This document shows, piece after piece, positions 4,900-34,229 of a DNA stretch of 39,029 nucleotides (position 1 is its first letter; every line of letters starts with the position of its first letter). The notes beneath the pieces were generated by a model that was not told the DNA's origin, made no database searches, and worked only from the letters and a program-made list of their open reading frames with translations. The stretch comes from Candidatus Margulisiibacteriota bacterium (GTDB lineage Bacteria; Margulisbacteria; Termititenacia; Termititenacales; Termititenacaceae): positions 1-39,029 of the forward strand of contig JAIRZV010000126.1 in NCBI GenBank assembly GCA_031267055.1, read 5' to 3'. The position numbers and the translations under genes are program-made.

Positions 4900-6397
4900 A
4901 TAAAAAAACCGGCTTGTCGTCGGTATCTAGCATGACACGCAGCGGCTTGTCGGTCTGAAATTCGCGGAGATATTTTTCCTCGTCCGCGGTGATCCAGTAA
5001 GCAAAAGCCGCGTCGTAAGCCTGATAGTCGCATTGCGCGCCGTATTCGTTTTCCAGACGGAAACGCACGACATCAAATTGCAATTCACCGACCGCGCCAA
5101 GCACCAGTTTTTGGTCGAGCAGGCCTTTGAACAACTGCACCGCGCCTTCTTCCGACAATTGCCGCAAGCCTTTTTGCAGCTGTTTAGTTTTCAAAGGATT
5201 GCGATTGATAACCAGACGGAAAATTTCCGGCGCAAAACTGGGAATACCGCTAAAATTGAGCGTCTCGCCTTCGCTGAAAGTATCGCCGATCTTGAGCGCG
5301 CCGGTGTCGTGAATGCCGATAATATCGCCGGCATAGGCCGCTTCGGTGACGGCGCGCGTCTGCGCCATAAAGGTCAGCGGATTGGCAACTTTGAATTCTT
5401 TTTTTTCACGCACTTGATAAACTTTCATGCCGCGCGTAAAAACGCCGGAACAAACGCGCAAAAAAGCGATGCGGTCGCGGTGATTGGGGTCCATATTGGC
5501 GTGAATTTTAAAAACAATGCCGGTCATTTTATTTTCGCCGGGGTCGACAAGGCGCTCGGCAGCCGGTCTGGACTGCGGCGGCGGCGCCAGCCGGATAATC
5601 TCCCGCAATAAATCCAGTATGCCGAAATTATTGATCGCGCTACCGAAAAAAACCGGCGTCATCTCTCCGCGCAAGTATTTCTCTAAACTAAAAGGCTCCA
5701 GCGCGCCGTGTATAGTCGCCGCATCATCAGCCAGTTTGGCTCTCTGATAATCTTCGACCGCCGGAATATTTTCCGGTTCGACATTTTGAATTTCCTCAAA
5801 ATTTTGTTTATTGGAAAAACACAAATAACTTTTCTGGCGGAGATTATACACGCCGCGAAAACTACGCCCCATGCCGATCGGCCAACTCAAAGGCACGGCA
5901 GTAATACCCAGATTATTTTCAATGTCGTCGAGTAACGCAAACGGCTCCAGACCCTCGCGGTCAAGTTTGTTGATAAAAGTGATGACTGGAATTCGGCGCA
6001 TCTGGCAAACATCCATGAGTTTTTTGGTACGCTCCTCCACGCCTTTGACCGAATCGATGACCATCAGCACAGAATCCACGGCTGTCAGTGTGCGGTAAGT
6101 GTCCTCGCTGAAATCCGCGTGGCCTGGCGTGTCCAGCAGATTGAGGACCGCGCCATCATACTCAAAAGACATGACCGAAGTCGCCACAGAGACACCGCGC
6201 TGTTTTTCCAGCTCCATCCAGTCCGAGGTGGTGTGTCTGCCGACTTTTTTGGCTTTGATCGCGCCGGCGGTCTGTATTGCTCCGCCGAAAAGCAAAAGTT
6301 TTTCCGTAATCGTCGTTTTGCCGGCGTCCGGATGGCTGATGATCGCAAAAGTACGGCGGCGTTGTATTTCGGCCAGTTTATCAAGCATACGGGGCAA
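4802..6397 (-). CDS. prfC: peptide chain release factor 3 (GTPase)
   Basis: The GTPase motifs are FAIISHPDAGKTT (G1), DTPGHADF (G3) and NKLDR (G4), and the ~530-aa length fits RF3. The track start at 6395-6397 is TTG. An ATG three codons downstream (6386-6388, MLDKLAEIQRRRTF...) is the more likely start. Confidence 0.9.
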   Translation of the reverse strand: MPRMLDKLAEIQRRRTFAIISHPDAGKTTITEKLLLFGGAIQTAGAIKAKKVGRHTTSDWMELEKQRGVSVATSVMSFEYDGAVLNLLDTPGHADFSEDTYRTLTAVDSVLMVIDSVKGVEERTKKLMDVCQMRRIPVITFINKLDREGLEPFALLDDIENNLGITAVPLSWPIGMGRSFRGVYNLRQKSYLCFSNKQNFEEIQNVEPENIPAVEDYQRAKLADDAATIHGALEPFSLEKYLRGEMTPVFFGSAINNFGILDLLREIIRLAPPPQSRPAAERLVDPGENKMTGIVFKIHANMDPNHRDRIAFLRVCSGVFTRGMKVYQVREKKEFKVANPLTFMAQTRAVTEAAYAGDIIGIHDTGALKIGDTFSEGETLNFSGIPSFAPEIFRLVINRNPLKTKQLQKGLRQLSEEGAVQLFKGLLDQKLVLGAVGELQFDVVRFRLENEYGAQCDYQAYDAAFAYWITADEEKYLREFQTDKPLRVMLDTDDKPVFLFKGAWEVKFLQEQFPKIRFYKTSECRERDLIV

Positions 6398-6512: not shown

Positions 6513-6543
6513 TTATAACGTTATGATATAGTTATAACGTTAT
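6513..6543. promoter_or_regulatory. two TTATAACGTTAT palindromic boxes (candidate operator) upstream of and overlapping the fic start codon
   Basis: TTATAACGTTAT occurs at 6513-6524 and 6532-6543, with core TAACGTTA at 6516-6523 and 6535-6542. The second box overlaps the ATG at 6542. The downstream gene encodes an XRE-type HTH. Confidence 0.5.
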
Positions 6544-7477
6544 GGATAATAGCAAGACCAGAAAATATCTGCAAGAAATCCTGCACAGCTCTGGCTGGTC
6601 GCAGGAATTACTAGCTAATAAGCTAGGGGTTTCTTTTAAGACGCTCAATACCTGGGTAAATGGCCACGCCTCGCCACGCGTAAAAGCTCTGGCGGGAATC
6701 GAGCAGTTTTATTATGACATTGTGGGCCGAGGTTCGGTTGAAGTTGACTTCTTAAATAAAGTAAAAAAACAGGCTCTAAAGCAGAGAATCACTCTAAAAG
6801 AAATACTGGCTAACAGAGAGCTCCTGGATAAAATAACTCTGCATTTGACTTATCATACCAACACCATAGAGGGCTCTACTATGACTTTACAAGATGTGGA
6901 AGATGTTATCTTTGACAATAAAATCCTAACCAACCGCACCACTACCGAACAGATCGAGGCGCGTAATCACAAAGCGGCGTTGTATTTTCTGCTGGACACT
7001 CTGCAAGTCCAAGGGCAGAGATTTCAATGGACAGAAGAATTGCTTTTGGCGGCTCACCTGCGTTTGTTGAACGGCATCATTACCAATGCCGGATATTACC
7101 GTAAACACAGCGTGCGCGTCTTGGGATACCGCGCAGTATTGGCTAATTTTCTGAAAATTCCATTTCTGATAAATAAACTGTTTCAAGAATTAAATAATCC
7201 GACTAAGGATATTATAGGAAGCCTGGCTAAAACTCATGCTGCTTTTGAACAAATACATCCTTTTTCGGACGGCAACGGCAGACTGGGCAGGCTGGTCATG
7301 TTCATTCAAGCTCTAAAATATAGTCTAATGCCTCCGCTAATCGTCAAAGAACGCAAAAAAGCTTATTACAGATATTTAGAAATCGCTCAAATGGAAAACA
7401 AGACGAATTTATTAACTTTATTTATTGCAGAGGCAATCTTATTTACAAATGATTTGCTAAATAATAAAACGTTATAA
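6542..7477 (+). CDS. Fic family protein (AMPylase-type) with N-terminal XRE-type HTH domain
   Basis: 311 aa. It has an HTH (WSQELLANKLGVSFKTLNTWVNG), the auto-inhibitory helix motif TNTIEG ([ST]xxxE[GN]) and the Fic active-site motif HPFSDGNGRLGR (HxFx[DE]GNGRxxR). Confidence 0.9.
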   Translation: MDNSKTRKYLQEILHSSGWSQELLANKLGVSFKTLNTWVNGHASPRVKALAGIEQFYYDIVGRGSVEVDFLNKVKKQALKQRITLKEILANRELLDKITLHLTYHTNTIEGSTMTLQDVEDVIFDNKILTNRTTTEQIEARNHKAALYFLLDTLQVQGQRFQWTEELLLAAHLRLLNGIITNAGYYRKHSVRVLGYRAVLANFLKIPFLINKLFQELNNPTKDIIGSLAKTHAAFEQIHPFSDGNGRLGRLVMFIQALKYSLMPPLIVKERKKAYYRYLEIAQMENKTNLLTLFIAEAILFTNDLLNNKTL

Positions 7478-7501
7478 CGTTTTACTTTTGATATAACGTT
7501 A
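7467..7501. promoter_or_regulatory. second cluster of AACGTT-core palindromes at the fic stop codon
   Basis: ACGTTATAACGT (7469-7480, a perfect 12-nt palindrome spanning the TAA stop) and TAACGTTA (7494-7501). These share the core of the upstream boxes. Confidence 0.4.
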
Positions 7502-7517
7502 CGGAACGGGTTAATAT

Positions 7518-7534
7518 GGGCAAATATTAACATT
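7518..7534. repeat. 17-nt direct repeat, copy 2 (GGGCAAATATTAACATT)
   Basis: Identical to 6392..6408. It lies 41 nt downstream of the fic stop. Confidence 0.8.
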
Positions 7535-7583
7535 CTTTGAAGGACATAGCGCGGCGGAATTGCTGATTGGGGTGTGTTAGATT

Positions 7584-8060
7584 TTAGATGTTTTTTTCAC
7601 CGTTTTCCGTCAAAATCTTATTTAATAACTCCACAGAATAGTAACGTTTATTTTTCAATAATTTTCGAAATAAAGGACGCAAACTACTGATCAGCTTTTC
7701 TTTTTTAGCTTTAATCAGGATCGCCAGTGTGCCAACACAAGAAAGACCCATTGTTTCAGCGATCAGACGCGCTTTTTTATCATCCAACAATAAATAATCA
7801 GCTTTAATTTCGCGACATAAAACAATAGCTTCTGCTTCGCCTTTATCCATAAAAGAAATCGCCGCAGCAGTATTCTTAATATTTTTGACCCGTGTTTTAT
7901 AACGTTTTATTTGAGGAATATTCAAACGGTCAGCATACACGCTGATTTCCTGCCAGACCGCAGACGGGAAATAAAGTTCAGGAAATAATTTATCCAGAAC
8001 AGTAAGTTTATTGATAACAGCTAGAGAAATCAGCGGACTGGTGTCAGCAACAACAAGCAC
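7584..8060 (-). CDS. PIN-like nuclease toxin, DUF3368/COG2405 type
   Basis: 158 aa. The N-terminus MLVVADTSPLISLAVINKL has the conserved acidic residue of PIN-like folds, and later acidic positions (DKGEAEAI, LLLDDKKAR) also fit. It starts 3 nt after the stop of a small upstream partner, which is the typical TA layout. Confidence 0.7.
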   Translation of the reverse strand: MLVVADTSPLISLAVINKLTVLDKLFPELYFPSAVWQEISVYADRLNIPQIKRYKTRVKNIKNTAAAISFMDKGEAEAIVLCREIKADYLLLDDKKARLIAETMGLSCVGTLAILIKAKKEKLISSLRPLFRKLLKNKRYYSVELLNKILTENGEKNI

Positions 8061-8063
8061 AAA

Positions 8064-8354
8064 TTAATTTTCCGTACGCTTAATTCTGGCCATTTTTTTT
8101 AGATCAGCGTCAATATCCGTAAAATTCAAAAAAGAAATCGGAAATTGATTAACCGACAAATAAGTTTCAAATTCGGTTTTATTCAGACCAGCAAATTTGG
8201 CAGCCTGGCCGATAGTCATAGCGGACTGCTGGAAAAATTTTACCGCCAGATATCGTTTGATTTCCTGCTGCAAATCCGTATCGGACTCCGGTAACGAATC
8301 AGCCAAATCTTCCGGCATAGTGATTACAATTTTATGAGCTTCATGAAGGACCAT
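8064..8354 (-). CDS. UPF0175/COG2886-type antitoxin
   Basis: 96 aa. The TIGQAAKFAGLNKTEFETYLSVNQFPI segment resembles the UPF0175 family that normally pairs with DUF3368 PIN proteins. It sits immediately upstream of the PIN gene. Confidence 0.65.
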   Translation of the reverse strand: MVLHEAHKIVITMPEDLADSLPESDTDLQQEIKRYLAVKFFQQSAMTIGQAAKFAGLNKTEFETYLSVNQFPISFLNFTDIDADLKKMARIKRTEN

Positions 8355-25100: not shown

Positions 25101-25520
25101 TTTGGGATTATCCAGTTCCGGAATTTGGGTAAGCAGTTTGGAAATTTCGGGATCAAAAGGATCGATATAAGTGTCTACGCTATTGTAACCACTAGACAGA
25201 TCTGAATAGCCAAAAGCCGCGTCGACAAAAGAACTTTCACCGTTGTAAGAGACCAGATAATAAGAGTCATTGTCAGAATTTACCTTGCCGGCCACATCAT
25301 ACTGCTTGATGTTATAAATATATGAGCCGTTGTCTTCCTCGATAGAGAGCTGACCGCGTTGCGTAAAACCACGTGAGAGTGAGGCGCTGTCTGACGCGGT
25401 CGCGTTATAAACGCCGTTCTCCGCGGCGCGGGCAATATAAGCCGGATCGGCCGGTACGGTCGCATTCAGACCTGCTGCTAACATGCCGGCGTCTAATGTC
25501 CCTCGAATATTATCAACCAT
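10119..25520 (-). CDS. giant multidomain membrane-associated protein, 5,133 aa, function unknown
   Basis: Uninterrupted 15,402-nt frame. The ATG at 25518-25520 is preceded by AGGGGG four nt upstream. All ORFs in other frames across this span are short, low-complexity shadows. Recognisable parts are listed as separate sub-features. Confidence 0.9.
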   Translation of the reverse strand: MVDNIRGTLDAGMLAAGLNATVPADPAYIARAAENGVYNATASDSASLSRGFTQRGQLSIEEDNGSYIYNIKQYDVAGKVNSDNDSYYLVSYNGESSFVDAAFGYSDLSSGYNSVDTYIDPFDPEISKLLTQIPELDNPKLSAEEKLTKLYNYIIDNFNYVPEDKDDWNFVGETIFQRGGDCEDLSILLASAMIALLMNEGMDYQTANSRVSAVAGKHAVYGDHVFVEYLADDGQTYALDAAFAEQGNIAKLSDLKQVNELSFDVYFRFNDNKVFGTAAQLEFLENNAKAYIDPTDPALSKFLAEFEGAMDLSGLSMDEITAKLFNYIKTEYQCLDLQDVFPNQSLVIDTKAGASQNLALLAVNSLLALAAKTGASLPNARVCEATDKASGEKQWVMLYQDSSGVDRVFDFSDKIVSPQLQLGLVKTADDLLSINSYVPVNALSLSADFGQEYSISNNLYSRSVQRFNPKAGYVSEGTSSTYGKLSQPDTKLISDFYANNIIFGSTAIYEKGAWSGDASPEDVKSVLKKLKSNGNDGNSIDSILNNRTDVWGVNQRKTQTEITTMTNIGNFIDDRSDFWRYEDDKFEKARVEFLFQRNILAFLAMVMEAQNEAYNIVGAELERVGSEEAYKSMKASQIIQTETDTLLKDVNELKKEAVGIVNQHNQLMESVISKEIDEIQKDRNRVLSMIAAVSSVAFAAAGVTGIGVFGAMQATGRATMAASAWAGWAIPGVIVLGIGMAVAIPLVAKVTYDAVGRSRGNKKDLMALQIPAAIAAASVAAAIPVLAATIIASAAGIAMTAASLGTAAPLAAAGVAFCIGAGLALSGFFLNTILGKLSALISGTITLEQDQNKAEAAQEKWDKVSKPKAEVAGKNLAQTQSSAKDLASSRTQTYTEVLKHFSDSGSAQAIAANMQMQYSLLDEAAKVKFKRGADGLIYDNDEKFIVLEREISRLQIINRTLGSLHAAKAQSRNAVHTEMTSQSGYTTSTLVSSLIEQEQSVIMEKFNEIKQLRQEYISAYNASLSAAANADKLTKLFQLESTAFGIGFLCSFIEVPMDPQSAIGIVKTLFNAKESVWDRDDLRREFDMTGVVNGSESGYGYSGGSFGSMTGAGDYAIAGEVDVLKILQDEWNKGVHVGLTNREISKYDVIDKSGSLWGNPANLIGNIVGGGGIFDWLLNILAPTNNVENQVKSSVNVNSNTQNIADVSEADGLTKSTIDVAKDNYQMTYRARIAWMRYQATQAVNLRRAQFMIQRYNLESRNIVHQEMTNTTTYQVSGLAEQALSAEFQYVTSIIAAYAQREEQRIQTRNAMIEREQQRWKQAWVSMAGPFGYLVGPKCDELLAKSYANMGQPDATSLHSLTNGIGQANAEKLNEAGTRLYNSQGEIKSTSKGVNVYTDSVLYSESENGLIVKTEVPAGIFGGVASYSVNFENMNKAQADIYGLSYLNAIWQAMYNTRSASRSMVHQVLTNVSNLSLSNYSGGAVGAENQFIQSKAQDLTSTVNDIVSIKQKIYDAQSAQKNEEVKRTFGIIGTIVAAVAIVVLIVLGIIPQLGTCFSLMSGVSGLAMAVCSFFEAIVTMVKLAILKYKQQEELKDITKKAREKARQDVDGKGSGDLVQQTTGDTDPLEGTNSDFFGLMTNGGAAKFQLSLMQANMKKMERINAALRKVHRAKGEARGKITSKISGAAGANLPSAAEMVAGLEAGVAGAMLEQLVSKASKLEETDKKIDTQIDKIISATAGLTSATIAAVRAAGDFKDGIEKNLEKYGGNAWKQKGSQLLQEIGDFFKTGKDMQGKNGANSFWQSKAGKSISGVVGLGTSAVGGQNKDTKGLNTTGTGGFMGMGGGGGDLGAFNKARGESRGELEAQIKSKDPNIAVDSAGNIDPAALSKYVKEHPNDPDVKAFGEATAAAADNYLQSEAGMLKGLTGAVVGLAFAWLKLGAALLTGDLLDWGTSYSKHPGANAIDAKGELQKPEATTVEGATLDDTVIDQLKQGDPDQITTRFKDGNPRTGTQVTNKLEVSVKTAVKNVGDQAGGNEVEIKLDGKLVAFNDLTEEQQKAVINAMQAQIYVNNTHRGGQAVGAWGENGVAAMAEQRLDALLADMGVSKDNPNYAAYRETLKKNSTLHVTEGNMKKDMKFTTAGGLETTVETDYQARGNEDVAKNIVAQDTGWGNVVASDIRDNDGEIYQGYKGTESSAKVTENMAGAYDYGGGLSYDNGTWSGAQANDDGTITADGVTYRVEENGDGPPILQEVVTDQDELETLAGQLGINDVSRLQNKTPTELNDMIAAKNGDTAAAMDTSNLEAQKAAIADLIANGVTIAEDAPVEKIRQAIDAKNGDIAAKNADIIKELQGKGLNIPDNATQKQIDDAVDAENTRRQGVTGDANAVNRAESQEQLAAPISLSNGVTMQITADGQVQISKTGEDGEVVTMTSKPEEADKIQRALDEGNKISIAVEGPDGANGMVEIGRSGSGATGGRKVEFSGVESTAAPDDDESEKRIDNDLTTADLLVKALADLAKNILEQANYQTQMDKLSGGAHVGNLLAALDPRDAREVMSVLTDAYAGEGARRIQNDAEMVQSMQDLLGKHTSPGTLNARFNKFLKEMEQANDLKKNKEKKEQYQPIQDFYVNNTFVDDKTKDTIAFMISNGQEDEARQVMKKITAMQKDVETFMIGDLGKEDAEIVRQNAKDWFTANIDSQGTITVVLKQEVKEQLINGQIPSVSTNAKLSEAIVKKLKTVANSDEDGGVNRFTVNAGEPFRENYNGIYTPDWHLGSNARTRNLGLKSGSVKVDGKEIKYSIDKDGNYFLPPKADNTEYSDAELRAIADQEIENNPGKDVKILCQKPGAVDPTEYTFNAGGSIAHDLSRSELEGSRLQTLSDFQAYSNVMEAYNVDYDPANITDVSDRYCLYKQDDLSRLPGLSATTPQGGSEGCSLARIDLDKVNADGAALLTATGNSNRSIITTGVGKTPTRYDHKTNAAYQPTAKNMLAQLDAEIKELEQKDDPVSQSRLKEAKDIRDELKNAQASRNNEEVDRLVNGYYTDTVDQVFAADSNLEHAQNLQKAEGDITVARGKIADADRIIEAAPGQIEAAEGEIAAASGKIETATTARDEAAGRVREKAAELSTARQEAATARSEATAARNTAIAARKAAVSARKTAVEANGEALQIRKDATETRNEASETRDKAIEKRGEAAPARRAADQKDGEATAKILEASGARTMADTAKAKALTSRGAANTAAETAARSRRAADVAARDAAAAKRTWETDADKADRKRTEANNARGFIDGLKERITDLQARLVEGLSEAEKTEIDTAITELEDKILELEPGAAALETAAAGLEGDATESKKKYDELQGTAETLEGTAKTDEATADTLETTAKTDKAEANRLDGIADGLETEAKELETEAKRLKGIAEKLEEEVERLEEQATELEEKARGLEKDAIEAEEKAGYLNQEAEMLSNTATGLEEAADGLEDRASDLEATARDLEKKVRDLEIELEAAKADLAQAQADLAQAQADLEEAQEKKRQLEKDLDAAIRAKAQAQAELTDALRAKERAEEAIKATNTQLSRTLEAQREAEAAAEARQQAQKEEDEGTISAETAVQAEAVEAKTDQQVANSAETQPDWAALARQEVGDSMAKMNSLEDRVQQFGDPLNVGWMGSGPNATEAALKIITKNIEADPERSQLTVNGQLTLYSYYNRTVNSLTSIMNPESDPVAWEQTQRAYATNQGIGASLEKEIDKVEHDTGLRMPLTSDTKLSEMYAVAGGLPDLDNEDDPAVKKNFAKTAGKIGTALRITIDKFSYQKQQEGEEFSSENEAILQNAVNLDAQLLTDETRQYELGSIQYQEAIKRHTANCGHYIWSSSSSTANRGEAIGFVVRSMENLPEEVKREISCGENGLGLPDTVSTGSILDDDTVEAVSKNIDDRFKIEKEPPQSKALLEAYANIRSLEQARTTNAFVNLDLIDKYPDLFTAEGLIALLKEITRKAQLEGIDPRSTDQYKMYSAIIDIILYAPDDALMEKLNLTPEGLEDLRSRIKETQKTVEGIIDEIPELGNPDFSQHINIAAGTGNKLNFMARVQLLSSDFDAVGALLANRREDKKLAERINNMREVTSASAGQVLKQALANSNVGRIAHANIIAAQNDLSKAVTGGNLDQVRAAASHYKNTLIEAGLLSDEDVTNFDAMQQAFEDILQGTIKWDEKLFGKMPEGLVPDGQDQRDMLAGIFTVRSIKLLTTPPILSFHETAIEQNFSANDVGDMSMERSKELFARCLVGQAFTMDPAAARNNSLRLVDPVTYKRLTEQVSAYAMAVTAEDRAKIRENIAEIADITIDSPELNLLFSDEEGSAYQDFAKLTRDMLAAQNTRKHYRDDNTNRRNWHSALRTHFYSQLNDTTTINNLRRIDNAMTEYNRGRSSLLGPAGNRALEANEQMRAEVFRKEVIIPMTERQSSVTQMSTDYRRDMTNALTNLCNAGEPTRDVTREDIDLGRQISTEGKIELYNTAPSWTLETDILGLKDAAGTTLQPGMLDNIRNMPRGNTATIEQNKDCLNVILNTREVLLDETNGQPLSPELRAALDELNQMGAQTTRDLRKMGYGYTPQGEEKLTDLLAESRRQDDEQEHDPAAAAYQDAMKVFLREKNPAISLDGGTQLCGADGKLPDVIANTGEEFNGVVGADGTNRTELGKVLGGDNNAGINDAMKTIFFVAASGGEPPVIIHSGGLTPEIVQPKVVGFESAFAGDSTELNSAKRAELIQKIVGNAETSGIKVLLRPDGTPDVSATLTSLGDITMPVYVNLTNTDGSFADKPDPASIMNGRVFTMLEVLKEALGKALGEGAEEDINKHLFGDGETAGHLQIDAQYTFGNEKLGKDFYWSGNAPHDWTPGGDMYQKAIGFITEQNKKTNDAKLTVADPNGTGITYTLLLRDENGQPNISSRQWQNGDAVNKKVDGRIGANQGLRAANISFNQSIEVSSWNVSGDINGDEENETGTISRNPAGGYTLQIGGKKMDISAPGDGKALIIEEGLLGNKTKAEITFNNGEPTGFNVTVLTNPGTPQIVDRVADRELQALATGKSVAPPEAETPAGVREDDQELGTETAQNPEPERELTPTPQLDIPAPQPELDIKTAPAVTVTIPR
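10122..10330 (-). other. Pro/Glu/Thr-rich C-terminal tail of the giant protein (about aa 5063-5133)
   Basis: The tail reads ATGKSVAPPEAETPAGVREDDQELGTETAQNPEPERELTPTPQLDIPAPQPELDIKTAPAVTVTIPR. It looks like a low-complexity, disordered region and carries no known C-terminal sorting motif. Confidence 0.6.
14748..15503 (-). repeat. in-frame 21-nt (heptad) tandem array B, 36 units, consensus L-E-x-x-A-x-x (aa 3340-3591)
   Basis: The protein reads LEGTAKT DEATADT LETTAKT ... LETEAKE LETEAKR LKGIAEK LEEEVER LEEQATE LEEKARG ... AKADLAQ AQADLAQ AQADLEE. DNA-level near-identical units are present, e.g. 3 x 21 nt at 14963-15025, 2 x 21 nt at 15297-15338 and 2 x 42 nt near 15376-15460. Confidence 0.85.
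15669..16151 (-). repeat. in-frame 21-nt (heptad) tandem array A, 23 units, consensus x-A-x-x-x-R-x (aa 3124-3284)
   Basis: The protein reads ELSTARQ EAATARS EATAARN TAIAARK AAVSARK TAVEANG EALQIRK DATETRN EASETRD KAIEKRG EAAPARR ... The DNA shows a 21-nt periodic ...TTTCTTGC... pattern, e.g. at 16042-16146. Confidence 0.85.
20763..20936 (-). other. hydrophobic hairpin 2 of the giant protein (aa 1529-1586), two predicted TM helices
   Basis: FGIIGTIVAAVAIVVLIVLGIIPQLGTCFSLMSGVSGLAMAVCSFFEAIVTMVKLAIL forms two uncharged ~22-25-aa stretches separated by a short PQLG turn. Charged residues flank it (KRT... / ...KYKQQEE). Confidence 0.7.
22992..23465 (-). other. hydrophobic cluster 1 of the giant protein (aa 686-843), at least four predicted TM helices
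   Basis: The cluster reads VLSMIAAVSSVAFAAAGVTGIGVFGAM / ATMAASAWAGWAIPGVIVLGIGMAVAIPLVAKV / LMALQIPAAIAAASVAAAIPVLAATIIASAAGIAMTAASLG / TAAPLAAAGVAFCIGAGLALSGFFLNTILGKLSALISG. The Ala/Gly/Ile-rich stretches are separated by short polar or basic loops (QATGR, GRSRGNKKD). Confidence 0.7.
24285..24659 (-). other. degenerate (catalytically dead) duplicate of the transglutaminase-like domain (aa 288-412)
   Basis: It parallels the first copy segment by segment: YIDPTDPALSKFL vs YIDPFDPEISKLL; ITAKLFNYIKTEYQ vs LTKLYNYIIDNFNY; KAGASQNLALLAVNSLLAL vs RGGDCEDLSILLASAMIAL (Cys to Ser355); QWVMLY vs DHVFVEY (His to Trp395); VFD vs ALD (Asp retained). Confidence 0.6.
24771..25169 (-). other. transglutaminase-like cysteine protease core (aa 118-250) with intact Cys-His-Asp triad
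   Basis: QRGGDCEDLSILLASAMIALL (Cys182, nt 24975-24977), GDHVFVEY (His224, nt 24849-24851) and TYALD (Asp240, nt 24801-24803). The C-42-H-16-D spacing and the preceding LYNYIIDNFNY helix are typical of the transglutaminase-core superfamily. Confidence 0.7.
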
Positions 25521-25524
25521 TTTT

Positions 25525-25530
25525 CCCCCT
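25525..25530 (-). promoter_or_regulatory. Shine-Dalgarno (AGGGGG) of the giant gene
   Basis: The minus strand reads ...TTGCAGGGGGAAAAATG, so the purine-rich SD ends 4 nt before the ATG. Confidence 0.6.
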
Positions 25531-25690
25531 GCAAGGCAAAGAAATACCTTACGTCAGACGACCGCTTTAGCGGTCTTCAACGTTCGATATTCATTAGGAG
25601 AAAATAGAGAAAGGAGAAATGCTCTCAAAGTGGCATTTACCCTGCTAACGGCTGATGCGCTATATGTAGTGTGTTTGTTTCTAGACCACC

Positions 25691-25725
25691 ATATTAGTGG
25701 GGGGGGGGGGGGGGGTAACTGTTAA
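25691..25725 (-). promoter_or_regulatory. candidate promoter of the giant gene: TTAACA - 23 nt (including C17) - TAATAT
   Basis: The minus strand reads TTAACA gtta CCCCCCCCCCCCCCCCC ac TAATAT. The -35-like hexamer is at 25720-25725 and the -10-like hexamer at 25691-25696. The hexamers were identified by eye only. A 23-nt spacer is 6 nt longer than the 17-nt optimum. Confidence 0.3.
25699..25715. repeat. homopolymeric tract G17 (+) / C17 (-)
   Basis: Counted directly: 17 consecutive G from 25699 to 25715, 179 nt upstream of the giant-gene ATG. It is the only long homopolymer I saw in the window. Confidence 0.95.
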
Positions 25726-25816
25726 TCGATACTAAATTAAAATCTTTATTAAAAACTTTTTTCATATAAAACTCCGCTTTTTTGTTTTTTCACAAAAATC
25801 GTTCAACACTCATTTG

Positions 25817-25926
25817 TCGAGCGAATATCTTTGCCGCCGCGCGTGGTGGCCTCTCACTTAACGTCGGCTACTTTGTAGCCTTGTTAAGTTCGAGCCAGAC
25901 GCGCTTACGGCAAAATATTCGCTCGC
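25817..25926. repeat. extragenic palindromic element, copy A (110 nt)
   Basis: Long imperfect hairpin. The left arm CGAGCGAATATCTTTGCCG...GGCCTCTCACTTAAC pairs with the right arm GTTAAGTTCGAGCC...CGGCAAAATATTCGCTCG. It is near-identical to the reverse complement of 34121..34229 except at the apical loop. Confidence 0.8.
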
Positions 25927-25971
25927 AAAACATTCGCTAAAAAAAACGACCTTTCTTATTTTGTTCTATCT

Positions 25972-26052
25972 AGCGCGGCAAATATTTTGCCCGGAGCGAA
26001 CGTAACCTTCAGTGCTATGCCGTGTTCGCGAGGGCAAAGATATTTGCGCGCT
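25972..26052. repeat. extragenic palindromic element, copy C (81 nt, related shorter variant)
   Basis: AGCGCGGCAAATATTTTGCCC ... GGGCAAAGATATTTGCGCGCT with inner GCGAACG/CGTTCGC-like pairing. It shares the AATAT(C/T)TTTGCC / GGCAAA(A/G)ATATT arm core with copies A and B. Confidence 0.6.
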
Positions 26053-26208
26053 AAAATAACCATTTTTACCGCTTAAAAATCTTCCACTTACAAACTGATA
26101 AAAAAGTAATTACCCACTTATCGGTGAAATATACATCTAAAATGCATCGATTTTTGCCGTTGATTGAGTCGATTTTACAAAATCCGCGCGGCGTTATAAG
26201 ATACATTT

Positions 26209-27162
26209 ATGAGCAATGGAGAACTGCGTGTATTTCCTCTAAGTTCACATCCGGAAATGGCCGATAAAATCTCCGACTTGCTCGGTATCGCGCGCGGGAA
26301 AATCAAACGCTCCAAATTTAGCTGCGGCGAATTGTACACCCGTATTTTGGAAAATATTCGCGGACATGAAGTTTATCTGGTGCAGACTTCTACTGCCGAT
26401 GTAAACAACGATGTCATGGAGCTGCTCATCGCCATCGATTCCTGTAAACGCGCTTCGGCCAGTTCGATCAACGTGATAATTCCGCATTTTCCTTACAGCC
26501 GTCAGGACAAAAAATCCGCGTCGCGCGAGCCGATCACCGGCCGACTCATCGCCAATCTGCTGGAAGCCGCCGGCATTGACCGCATTATCACGATGGATCT
26601 GCACGCCGATCAGATCCAGGGTTTTTTCAATGTGCCAGTCGACCATTTAAATTCTTTGGTCTTGTTTGTCAAATATTTTCGCAATATTATCGGCGAGAAA
26701 AATAAAGACTATGTCGTGGTGTCGCCGGACACCGGCCGCGCCAAAGCTTGTAAAAAACTTTCCGACAAACTGGAGGTCGATCTGGCGATACTGCATAAAT
26801 CCCGTCCCGACCACAATGTTTCTGAGATATTGCATGTCATCGGCAATGTTCAAAATAAAAAATGCATTATTTTCGACGACATTATTGACACGGCCGGCTC
26901 GATCCAGAACGCTTACAATGTTTTGATCAGCCAGGGCGCCCGAGAAGTGTATGTCGCGGCCACGCACGCGGTGTTTTCCGGACCGGCGGCCGAGCGCCTC
27001 AACTCCTGCGCTTTCAAAGAAATCGTGGTGACTAACACCATACCGCTGGACAAAGCCAAGGAGATCAAAAATTTGTCGAGCATTGACATCGCGCCGCTTT
27101 TTGCCGAGACAGTCAAGCGCAATCATCAGCACGCCAGCATCAGCGAACTTTACGATATTTAG
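26209..27162 (+). CDS. prs: ribose-phosphate pyrophosphokinase
   Basis: 317 aa, with DLHADQIQGFF, VVSPDTGRAK and the PRPP-binding loop IIFDDIIDTAGS. Confidence 0.92.
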   Translation: MSNGELRVFPLSSHPEMADKISDLLGIARGKIKRSKFSCGELYTRILENIRGHEVYLVQTSTADVNNDVMELLIAIDSCKRASASSINVIIPHFPYSRQDKKSASREPITGRLIANLLEAAGIDRIITMDLHADQIQGFFNVPVDHLNSLVLFVKYFRNIIGEKNKDYVVVSPDTGRAKACKKLSDKLEVDLAILHKSRPDHNVSEILHVIGNVQNKKCIIFDDIIDTAGSIQNAYNVLISQGAREVYVAATHAVFSGPAAERLNSCAFKEIVVTNTIPLDKAKEIKNLSSIDIAPLFAETVKRNHQHASISELYDI

Positions 27163-34095: not shown

Positions 34096-34120
34096 TAAGT
34101 TGAGCGCAGACAAATATTTT

Positions 34121-34229
34121 GAGAGCGAATATTTTGCCGTAAGCGCGTTTTGGCTCGAACTTAACAAGCGGTGCAGCTGCGAAGTTAAGTGAGAGGCCAC
34201 GGCGCGCGGCGGCAAAGATATTCGCTCGA
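34121..34229. repeat. extragenic palindromic element, copy B (109 nt, inverted relative to copy A)
   Basis: The reverse complement matches 25817..25926 almost base for base in both arms. The apical segment differs but is itself self-complementary (GCAGCTGC here vs GGCTA....TAGCC in copy A). It fills the gap between the convergent rfbC and deacetylase genes. Confidence 0.8.

Follow-up and report, generated by a model that had tools for sequence, protein, structure and literature searches.

A length-variable poly-C tract ahead of a giant gene in a termite-gut Margulisbacteria symbiont, a candidate contingency switch that may act from within the mRNA leader

Long G:C homopolymers near the 5' end of a reading frame, where one-base changes open or close the frame, are the hallmark of intragenic phase variation, as in Neisseria pilC and lgt, the poly-G tracts of Campylobacter jejuni and the poly-C tract of Helicobacter fucT. 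In a second class (the porA poly-G and opc poly-C tracts of Neisseria meningitidis and the fim poly-C tract of Bordetella), the tract forms the spacer of a promoter. In Moraxella catarrhalis uspA1, a G(n) tract situated well upstream of the start codon of a large surface-protein gene, and outside its own frame, alters transcription in a graded manner (PMC7302503). Control of downstream expression by a short upstream open reading frame (uORF) is established for tnaC-tnaA and mgtP/mgtL-mgtCBR (PMC12360218). Here, we describe a 17-nt poly-C tract ahead of a gene encoding 5,133 amino acids (aa; the giant gene) in the entire 39,029-nt contig JAIRZV010000126.1 (assembly GCA_031267055.1, Candidatus Margulisiibacteriota bacterium), which belongs to a Candidatus Termititenax and is referred to throughout as the window. 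A homologous tract of a different length occurs in Candidatus Termititenax aidoneus, and we propose, with a probability of about 40%, that the tract controls the giant gene from within the mRNA leader via frame-dependent translational coupling. Homopolymer contingency loci have been described almost entirely in cultured, host-adapted pathogens, whereas the bacterium studied here is an uncultured termite-gut symbiont; Candidatus Termititenax are ectosymbionts attached to spirochetes on termite-gut protists.

The locus shares features with each of these systems. As in the intragenic class, a long G:C homopolymer lies near the 5' end of a reading frame that one-base changes would open or close, and a related gene in Candidatus Termititenax persephonae (C13 at approximately codon 48) fits that class directly. 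The window tract, however, belongs to a distinct, short leader ORF and lies 179 nt ahead of the giant gene, so that any effect on this gene would be indirect, and tracts of 17 to 21 are longer than is usual for the intragenic tracts of phase-variable pathogens. Like promoter-spacer switches, it has a poly-C/G tract with a -35-like and a -10-like hexamer on either side, ahead of the gene for a large protein that may be envelope-associated. Nonetheless, the tract lacks the defining features of that class (discussed below), and it is not classically intragenic either, as the giant ORF is left untouched. The uspA1 tract is downstream of its transcription start site, at a distance of ~170 nt from the ATG that closely matches the 179 nt found here; control in uspA1 is graded, transcriptional and without a leader ORF, whereas the prediction for the window combines a leader ORF, a period-3 dependence on tract length and a structure sequestering the ribosome-binding site. 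Leader-ORF systems, of which secM-secA and ermCL are further examples, have in common with the window a short leader ORF predicted to set downstream expression, consecutive proline codons (as in mgtP/mgtL) and a predicted alternative RNA structure at the ribosome-binding site. They sense a metabolite or translation state, while the input here would be a heritable, stochastic change in DNA length, and a terminator scan of the window and the T. aidoneus locus found no terminator-like element.

The tract occupies a 688-nt intergenic region between the giant gene and the divergently oriented prs (26209-27162), beyond which lie recR and ybaB. Seventeen consecutive G on the plus strand, 179 nt before the giant-gene ATG, had been reported in an initial annotation of this DNA and were confirmed, as were the letters of a -35-like TTAACA and a -10-like TAATAT separated by 23 nt (order on the gene strand from 25725 to 25691: TTAACA-GTTA-C17-AC-TAATAT). 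The length of 17 is an assembly consensus, and the true value may differ by a base or two. The same annotation considered the tract unlikely to have arisen by chance, which was borne out: the second-longest G or C run in the window is 6 nt, and across 79,174 nt of Termititenax DNA all G or C runs were ≤6 nt except for three, of 13, 17 and 21 nt (expected number of runs ≥17, 7e-6). A chance origin is thus excluded. That runs are otherwise limited to 6 nt in 79 kb indicates selection against them, and each of the three long runs marks the 5' end of a giant gene and consists of C on its sense strand.

Close relatives of the giant protein were found only in Candidatus Termititenax (Margulisbacteria), uncultured bacteria of termite guts. 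In T. aidoneus (BGZN01000001, locus L007), the homologue shares 76% identity with the window protein in the N-terminal region and has the same divergent arrangement with prs, with DNA identities of 90% over prs-recR-ybaB-secFD and 82% over the first 1.5 kb of the giant gene. A search for tract-length polymorphism at orthologous loci, as suggested in the initial annotation, identified C21 at the homologous site (5787-5807, 194 nt ahead of the giant-gene ATG), compared with C17 in the window (n = 2 genomes). The 24 nt directly 5' of the tract are conserved (AATTTAGTATCGATTAACAGTTA); they encode NLVSINS(Y) of the leader ORF and contain the TTAACA hexamer (25720-25725), and their sole difference between the two species (TCG/TCA) is synonymous in the uORF frame. 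In T. persephonae (BGZO01000006, locus L010, 5843-6200), the C13 tract of a paralogue (5982-5994) lies within the coding region of the giant gene, where it breaks the frame; C14 or C11 would restore it into the conserved N-terminal domain. Hence, this genus uses poly-C tracts in the reading frames of the giant-gene family. Among the homologous loci compared, the tract was absent from two paralogues (L008 and L009) and from more distant homologues, such that in these sequences it is specific to the 5' ends of the giant-gene family. A homologous tract of differing lengths that is specific to giant genes is the signature of a slipped-strand contingency locus, and the tract is very likely a slippage-prone on/off switch. 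This part of the earlier proposal of phase variation is supported, while the placement of the tract in a promoter spacer is not (see below).

As assembled, the leader ORF is 23 aa long (MKKVFNKDFNLVSINSYPPPPPH), reading MKKVFNKDFNLVSINSY-PPPPP-H-stop at C17 (Table 1). Tract lengths that are multiples of three (C15, C18 or C21) extend it to 69-71 codons, with the stop 33 nt ahead of the giant-gene ATG, whereas at all other lengths it stops 0-5 codons past the tract. At C21, its T. aidoneus counterpart (5758-5967) is uninterrupted over 69 aa; it begins with an ATG and GGAG of its own, is situated 3' of the conserved motif described below, and also terminates exactly 33 nt ahead of the AUG. An ATG with a Shine-Dalgarno (SD) sequence is present at both loci even though their DNA is non-homologous 5' of the conserved flank. 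The giant ORF itself is intact whatever the tract length, and a frame change would not hit the regulated protein.

Upstream of the tract, a promoter-like motif (TC[AG]ATGCA-N19-CGATA) was found in a single exact copy per locus, in giant-gene orientation and upstream of the giant gene or of a small gene and the giant gene, with an invariant spacing of 19 nt; no further exact copies were present in 178 kb on either strand. L008 and L011-L013 carry variants that keep the spacing but have one or two mismatches. The motif is kept between loci whose proteins are only ~30% identical, and its CGATA box resembles a -10 element of the sigma-28 type. It precedes the tract by ~400 nt in the window and by ~100 nt in T. 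aidoneus. With this conserved motif, probably the promoter or a regulatory site for transcription of the leader and giant gene, on its 5' side, the tract is most probably located in the transcribed leader.

A 68-nt block before the giant gene (25552-25619) is conserved (81% identity to T. aidoneus) and appears better explained as RNA than as coding sequence. In the RNAalifold consensus of the two leaders, the giant-gene SD and AUG (GGGGGAAAAAUGGUUGA) are base-paired with a CU-rich segment (TCTCTATTTTCTCCT), an interaction that encloses a hairpin, and the minimum free energy folds of both species also pair the SD with a CU-rich segment. Within the hairpin, two base pairs differ on both sides between the species (AU to GC and GC to AU), and further changes are one-sided and compatible with pairing. 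The 121-nt leaders were more stable than all 200 dinucleotide shuffles of each (z = -2.8 and -3.5), while folds of the whole leaders gave z = -1.5 and -2.1. The fold of the tract-less paralogue L009 shows no sequestration of the SD, and an Rfam scan of the whole window returned no family. The 3' arm of the hairpin contains the uORF stop, so that ribosomes reading the long frame would be expected to melt both the anti-SD helix and the hairpin shortly ahead of the giant-gene start.

Table 1. Positions of the tract, the giant gene and predicted leader elements in the window, with copies of the motif and small gene at homologous loci
Feature	Position	Strand	Remarks
Giant gene, 5133 aa	10119..25520	-	start codon agrees with homologues
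Giant-gene SD/start GGGGGAAAAAUGGUUGA	25513..25530	-	SD GGGGG 25526-25530; start codon 25518-25520; target of the anti-SD segment
Conserved leader hairpin (predicted)	25544..25590	-	uORF stop codon in 3' arm
uORF continuation	25554..25693	-	read only at tract lengths of 3k; ends with TGA 25554-25556
CU-rich anti-SD segment TCTCTATTTTCTCCT	25596..25610	-	predicted pairing with giant-gene SD and AUG
-10-like TAATAT	25691..25696	-	AGATTTTCC instead in L007; TAATAG in L010
uORF as assembled, MKKVFNKDFNLVSINSYPPPPPH then stop, 23 aa	25694..25765	-	ATG 25765; GGAG 6 nt before ATG
Poly-C tract	25699..25715	-	C17 on gene strand, G17 on plus strand; uORF codons 17-23, poly-Pro
Conserved 24-nt 5' flank AATTTAGTATCGATTAACAGTTA	25716..25739	-	23/24 identical to L007 5763-5786
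Promoter-like motif TCGATGCA-N19-CGATA	26119..26150	-	probable promoter/regulatory site for transcription of the leader and giant gene
Divergent prs promoter-like site TTTACA-17-TAAGAT	26174..26202	+	sigma-70 scan; recovered in the window and at the corresponding position of L007
Exact motif copies	window 26150->26119; L002 148-179; L003 4568-4599; L007 5654-5685; L009 5717-5748; L010 5684-5715; L015 3780-3811	- (window)	
Small-gene copies	L002 235-519; L003 4711-5004; L006 75-380; L015 3875-4159; L010 ~5390-5614		

Together, these features could operate as follows. Transcription would start at TCGATGCA-N19-CGATA, giving a leader with a short ORF in which the tract, as codons 17-23, sets the frame, and in which the CU-rich segment and the hairpin would pair with and hide the SD and AUG of the giant gene. 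At tract lengths of 3k, the leader ORF would remain open for ~70 codons, and ribosomes would cross the CU-rich segment and hairpin and halt 33 nt before the AUG, a passage that may unmask the ribosome-binding site of the giant gene and/or shield the transcript from polarity. At other lengths, the leader ORF would stop at or just past the tract and the giant gene would be silent. On this basis, C17 in the window would be OFF, one base short of ON; C21 in T. aidoneus would be ON; and C13 in T. persephonae, with the tract in the gene, would be OFF by one base. These states are provisional, as assembly consensus tract lengths may be off by a base. Translation of the leader ORF, formation of the structure in vivo, a promoter role for the motif and variation of tract length within populations are inferred here. 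The full scheme, namely a poly-C DNA switch wired into a leader ORF such that only 3k lengths allow ribosomes to unmask the giant-gene ribosome-binding site, along with a second design in a sister species where the tract is in the coding region, is put forward more tentatively than frame-dependent coupling as such and is, on balance, doubtful.

A number of observations weigh against control by translational coupling. Support for the uORF as a translated unit is weak: its openness alone is not significant for the given frame (P = 0.06 and 0.11 in the two species), its middle section is not conserved, and its peptides had no homologue among 5.8 billion proteins. Third-position changes in the C-terminal part of the uORF are equally explained as compensatory changes in the hairpin, and the structural covariation comes from two sequences only. 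When the tract was included in the fold, RNAfold paired the SD with the poly-C instead of the CU-rich segment. Furthermore, 364 nt containing a repeat that looks like a miniature inverted-repeat transposable element (MITE) are inserted between the motif and the leader ORF in the window, and the transcript may be interrupted there. Species-level length differences do not prove switching within a population, and the -35-like and -10-like hexamers at the tract ends are somewhat unlikely by chance (0.6%-4%).

The tract may alternatively be a neutral, mutationally self-sustaining homopolymer that persists in an intergenic region and has no effect on the giant gene. Two of the three tracts are in a frame-breaking state, the leader ORF is statistically uncompelling and without homologues, and paralogues L008 and L009 do without a tract. 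Neutral persistence is, however, difficult to reconcile with the selection against G or C runs indicated across the remainder of the Termititenax DNA, or with the occurrence of all three long tracts at the 5' ends of a single gene family and on the same strand. The flank and the downstream structure are also conserved, and in T. persephonae the tract is located in a coding region, where its length necessarily determines expression. We therefore consider this explanation unlikely.

Alternatively, the tract could tune expression from the 5' leader without involving a reading frame, as transcript-level volume control similar to that of the Moraxella uspA1 G(n) tract. RNA polymerase might slip or pause at the tract, the poly-C might pair with the G5 SD sequence, or it might expose a site for the loading of Rho, whose strongest ligand is poly(C). 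The tract is downstream of the conserved motif, and RNAfold pairs part of the poly-C with the GGGGG SD in both species. The graded transcriptional effect of an upstream tract has precedent in uspA1 (PMC7302503), and Rho-dependent attenuation in leaders is common (PMC12360218). Nonetheless, none of these routes accounts for switching by the gain or loss of one base in a run of 17-21 C, and they leave unexplained the ATG and SD before the tract in both species, the conserved stop position and the finding that the T. aidoneus tract is in frame. The z-scores given above for folds of the whole leaders are also weak. Frame-independent tuning is consequently rather improbable.

In the initial annotation, the tract was instead read as the spacer between the -35 (TTAACA) and -10 (TAATAT) elements of a giant-gene promoter. 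Changes in length would then shift the spacing toward or away from 17 nt, as for porA, opc and fim. The hexamers themselves are suggestive, with a 5/6 -35-like match 4 nt upstream of the tract and the -10-like sequence 2 nt downstream, and TTAACA falls inside the conserved flank. Similarly, the T. persephonae tract has a 5/6 -35-like TCGACA on its 5' side and AC-TAATAG on its 3' side. However, TAATAT is not conserved in T. aidoneus, where the position reads AGATTTTCC and no hexamer with at least 4/6 matches to a -10 was found 3' of the tract. The implied spacers (23 nt in the window, ≥26 nt in T. aidoneus and 21 nt in T. persephonae) compare with a functional range of 16-18 nt, placing all three genomes 4-9 nt past this range and deeply OFF; tracts of C9-C12 would be needed. 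In addition, the same arrangement in T. persephonae sits in a coding region, a conserved promoter-like motif is present upstream of the tract, and the tract is within a short ORF that has its own SD and ATG. A sigma-70 scan recovered a conserved site at prs and nothing conserved at the tract, the prs site serving, at the level of sequence comparison, as an internal control that sigma-70-type sites are conserved here. The promoter-spacer reading was thus not upheld, and we regard it as clearly improbable. Two-colour chemistry can yield long G runs, and length calls for 17-mer homopolymers are error-prone, but an artefact of poly-G sequencing or of assembly, raised as a possibility alongside the initial annotation, is very unlikely, as is a chimeric junction, because the independently assembled T. 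aidoneus genome has a C21 tract at the homologous site, with a conserved flank and synteny on both sides, and the window tract is internal to its 39-kb contig.

A conserved, variable poly-C tract on giant genes is the robust part of these results and modestly extends known biology, providing a clear candidate contingency locus in an ectosymbiont of a candidate phylum, tied to a family of giant, putatively membrane-anchored proteins. The coupling mechanism would be more notable but is unproven. If the leader-ORF model is true, a DNA length switch would act via translational coupling, a design distinct from switches in a promoter or in the frame of the regulated gene itself. In these symbionts, expression of the giant genes is probably heterogeneous.

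The giant protein had no Pfam match above threshold. Residues 139-193 scored 22.6 bits against Transglut_core, just under the cut-off of 23, around an invariant GGDCEDL motif. An AlphaFold model of moderate quality (mean predicted local distance difference test score, pLDDT, 60; 70-90 over residues 120-270 and 290-420) matched LapG-type transglutaminase-like cysteine proteases in Foldseek (E = 1e-5, target TM-score ~0.5). The model thus points to a transglutaminase-like (LapG-like) cysteine-protease fold at the N-terminus, possibly duplicated. No obvious signal peptide was identified in the protein, while clusters of hydrophobic residues (685-841, 1525-1587 and 1926-1947) point to membrane anchoring and precede a long coiled coil of ~600 residues. 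These features make the suggested surface- or contact-related role plausible but leave it unproven. Homologues were very few; those that could be identified are Margulisbacteria, and the rest come from metagenome contigs or uncultured metagenome-assembled genomes. The sequence cluster of the giant protein has one member, and two metagenome scans for relatives of its N-terminus found none. An Escherichia coli genome search with the tract region also gave no match.

Three further interpretations of the leader ORF were tried and set aside. A decayed copy of the giant-gene N-terminus was not supported (blastx E = 0.04; shuffle test p = 0.015-0.88 over eight comparisons). Four consecutive third-position changes, initially taken as coding evidence, were dropped, as the same changes are compensatory in the hairpin. 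The leader ORF also has no similarity to a conserved small gene of 94-101 aa (motif KKRGR.F.KEDY...EI..RL) that directly precedes the giant gene in distant homologues, its stop overlapping the giant-gene start in L003. The window and the T. aidoneus locus are without the small gene and have the poly-C leader ORF at that position. The long uORF frame is the same as that of the giant ORF in both species (window 25518-25556 and L007 5965-6003), separated from it by one TGA and 11 sense codons. This shared frame is probably a coincidence, and recoding of the in-frame TGA was rejected; TGA ends 9 of the 23 genes in the window.

In the intergenic region, the motif stands back to back with the conserved prs promoter-like site. 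The distance from the motif to the leader ORF is 364 nt in the window (25740-26103), compared with 62 nt in T. aidoneus. The extra DNA contains a ~118-nt hairpin-forming repeat with 32-nt inverted arms (25813-25930), the MITE-like element mentioned above, and a second copy (34113-34229) is 87.5% identical, differing mainly in the apical loop. Exact look-ups placed prs on a single other, short contig of the species, L001, which ends at 26095, 114 nt short of prs and before the tract; this end coincides with the insertion boundary. A prs contig of 100% identity is contained in SRR14710922.

The window (25691-25719) and the T. persephonae paralogue (5979-6001) share the immediate tract flanks TTA-Cn-ACTAATA, in a leader in one case and in a coding region in the other, while the 3' flank in T. 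aidoneus differs; the common flanks may reflect recombination between paralogues at the tract. The leader of the tract-less L009, a T. aidoneus paralogue whose protein is 90% identical to that of the window, carries 3.1 tandem units of 58 nt (97% matches; 5775-5956) that follow the conserved motif and precede the start codon. A hairpin is present in every unit, and this repeat may be a different kind of variable element at the same position. In L006, a distant Margulisbacteria homologue, runs of C6 and C8 followed by GAGGGGAG lie in the short spacer between the small gene and the giant gene (380-447), and are shorter C runs at a position comparable to that of the tract. Downstream of the giant gene and a Na/Pi cotransporter gene, a low-GC stretch of the window (6542-8354, 37%) contains a Fic/DOC-helix-turn-helix gene (6542-7477) and a UPF0175/DUF3368 pair (8064-8354 and 7584-8060) that looks like a toxin-antitoxin module.

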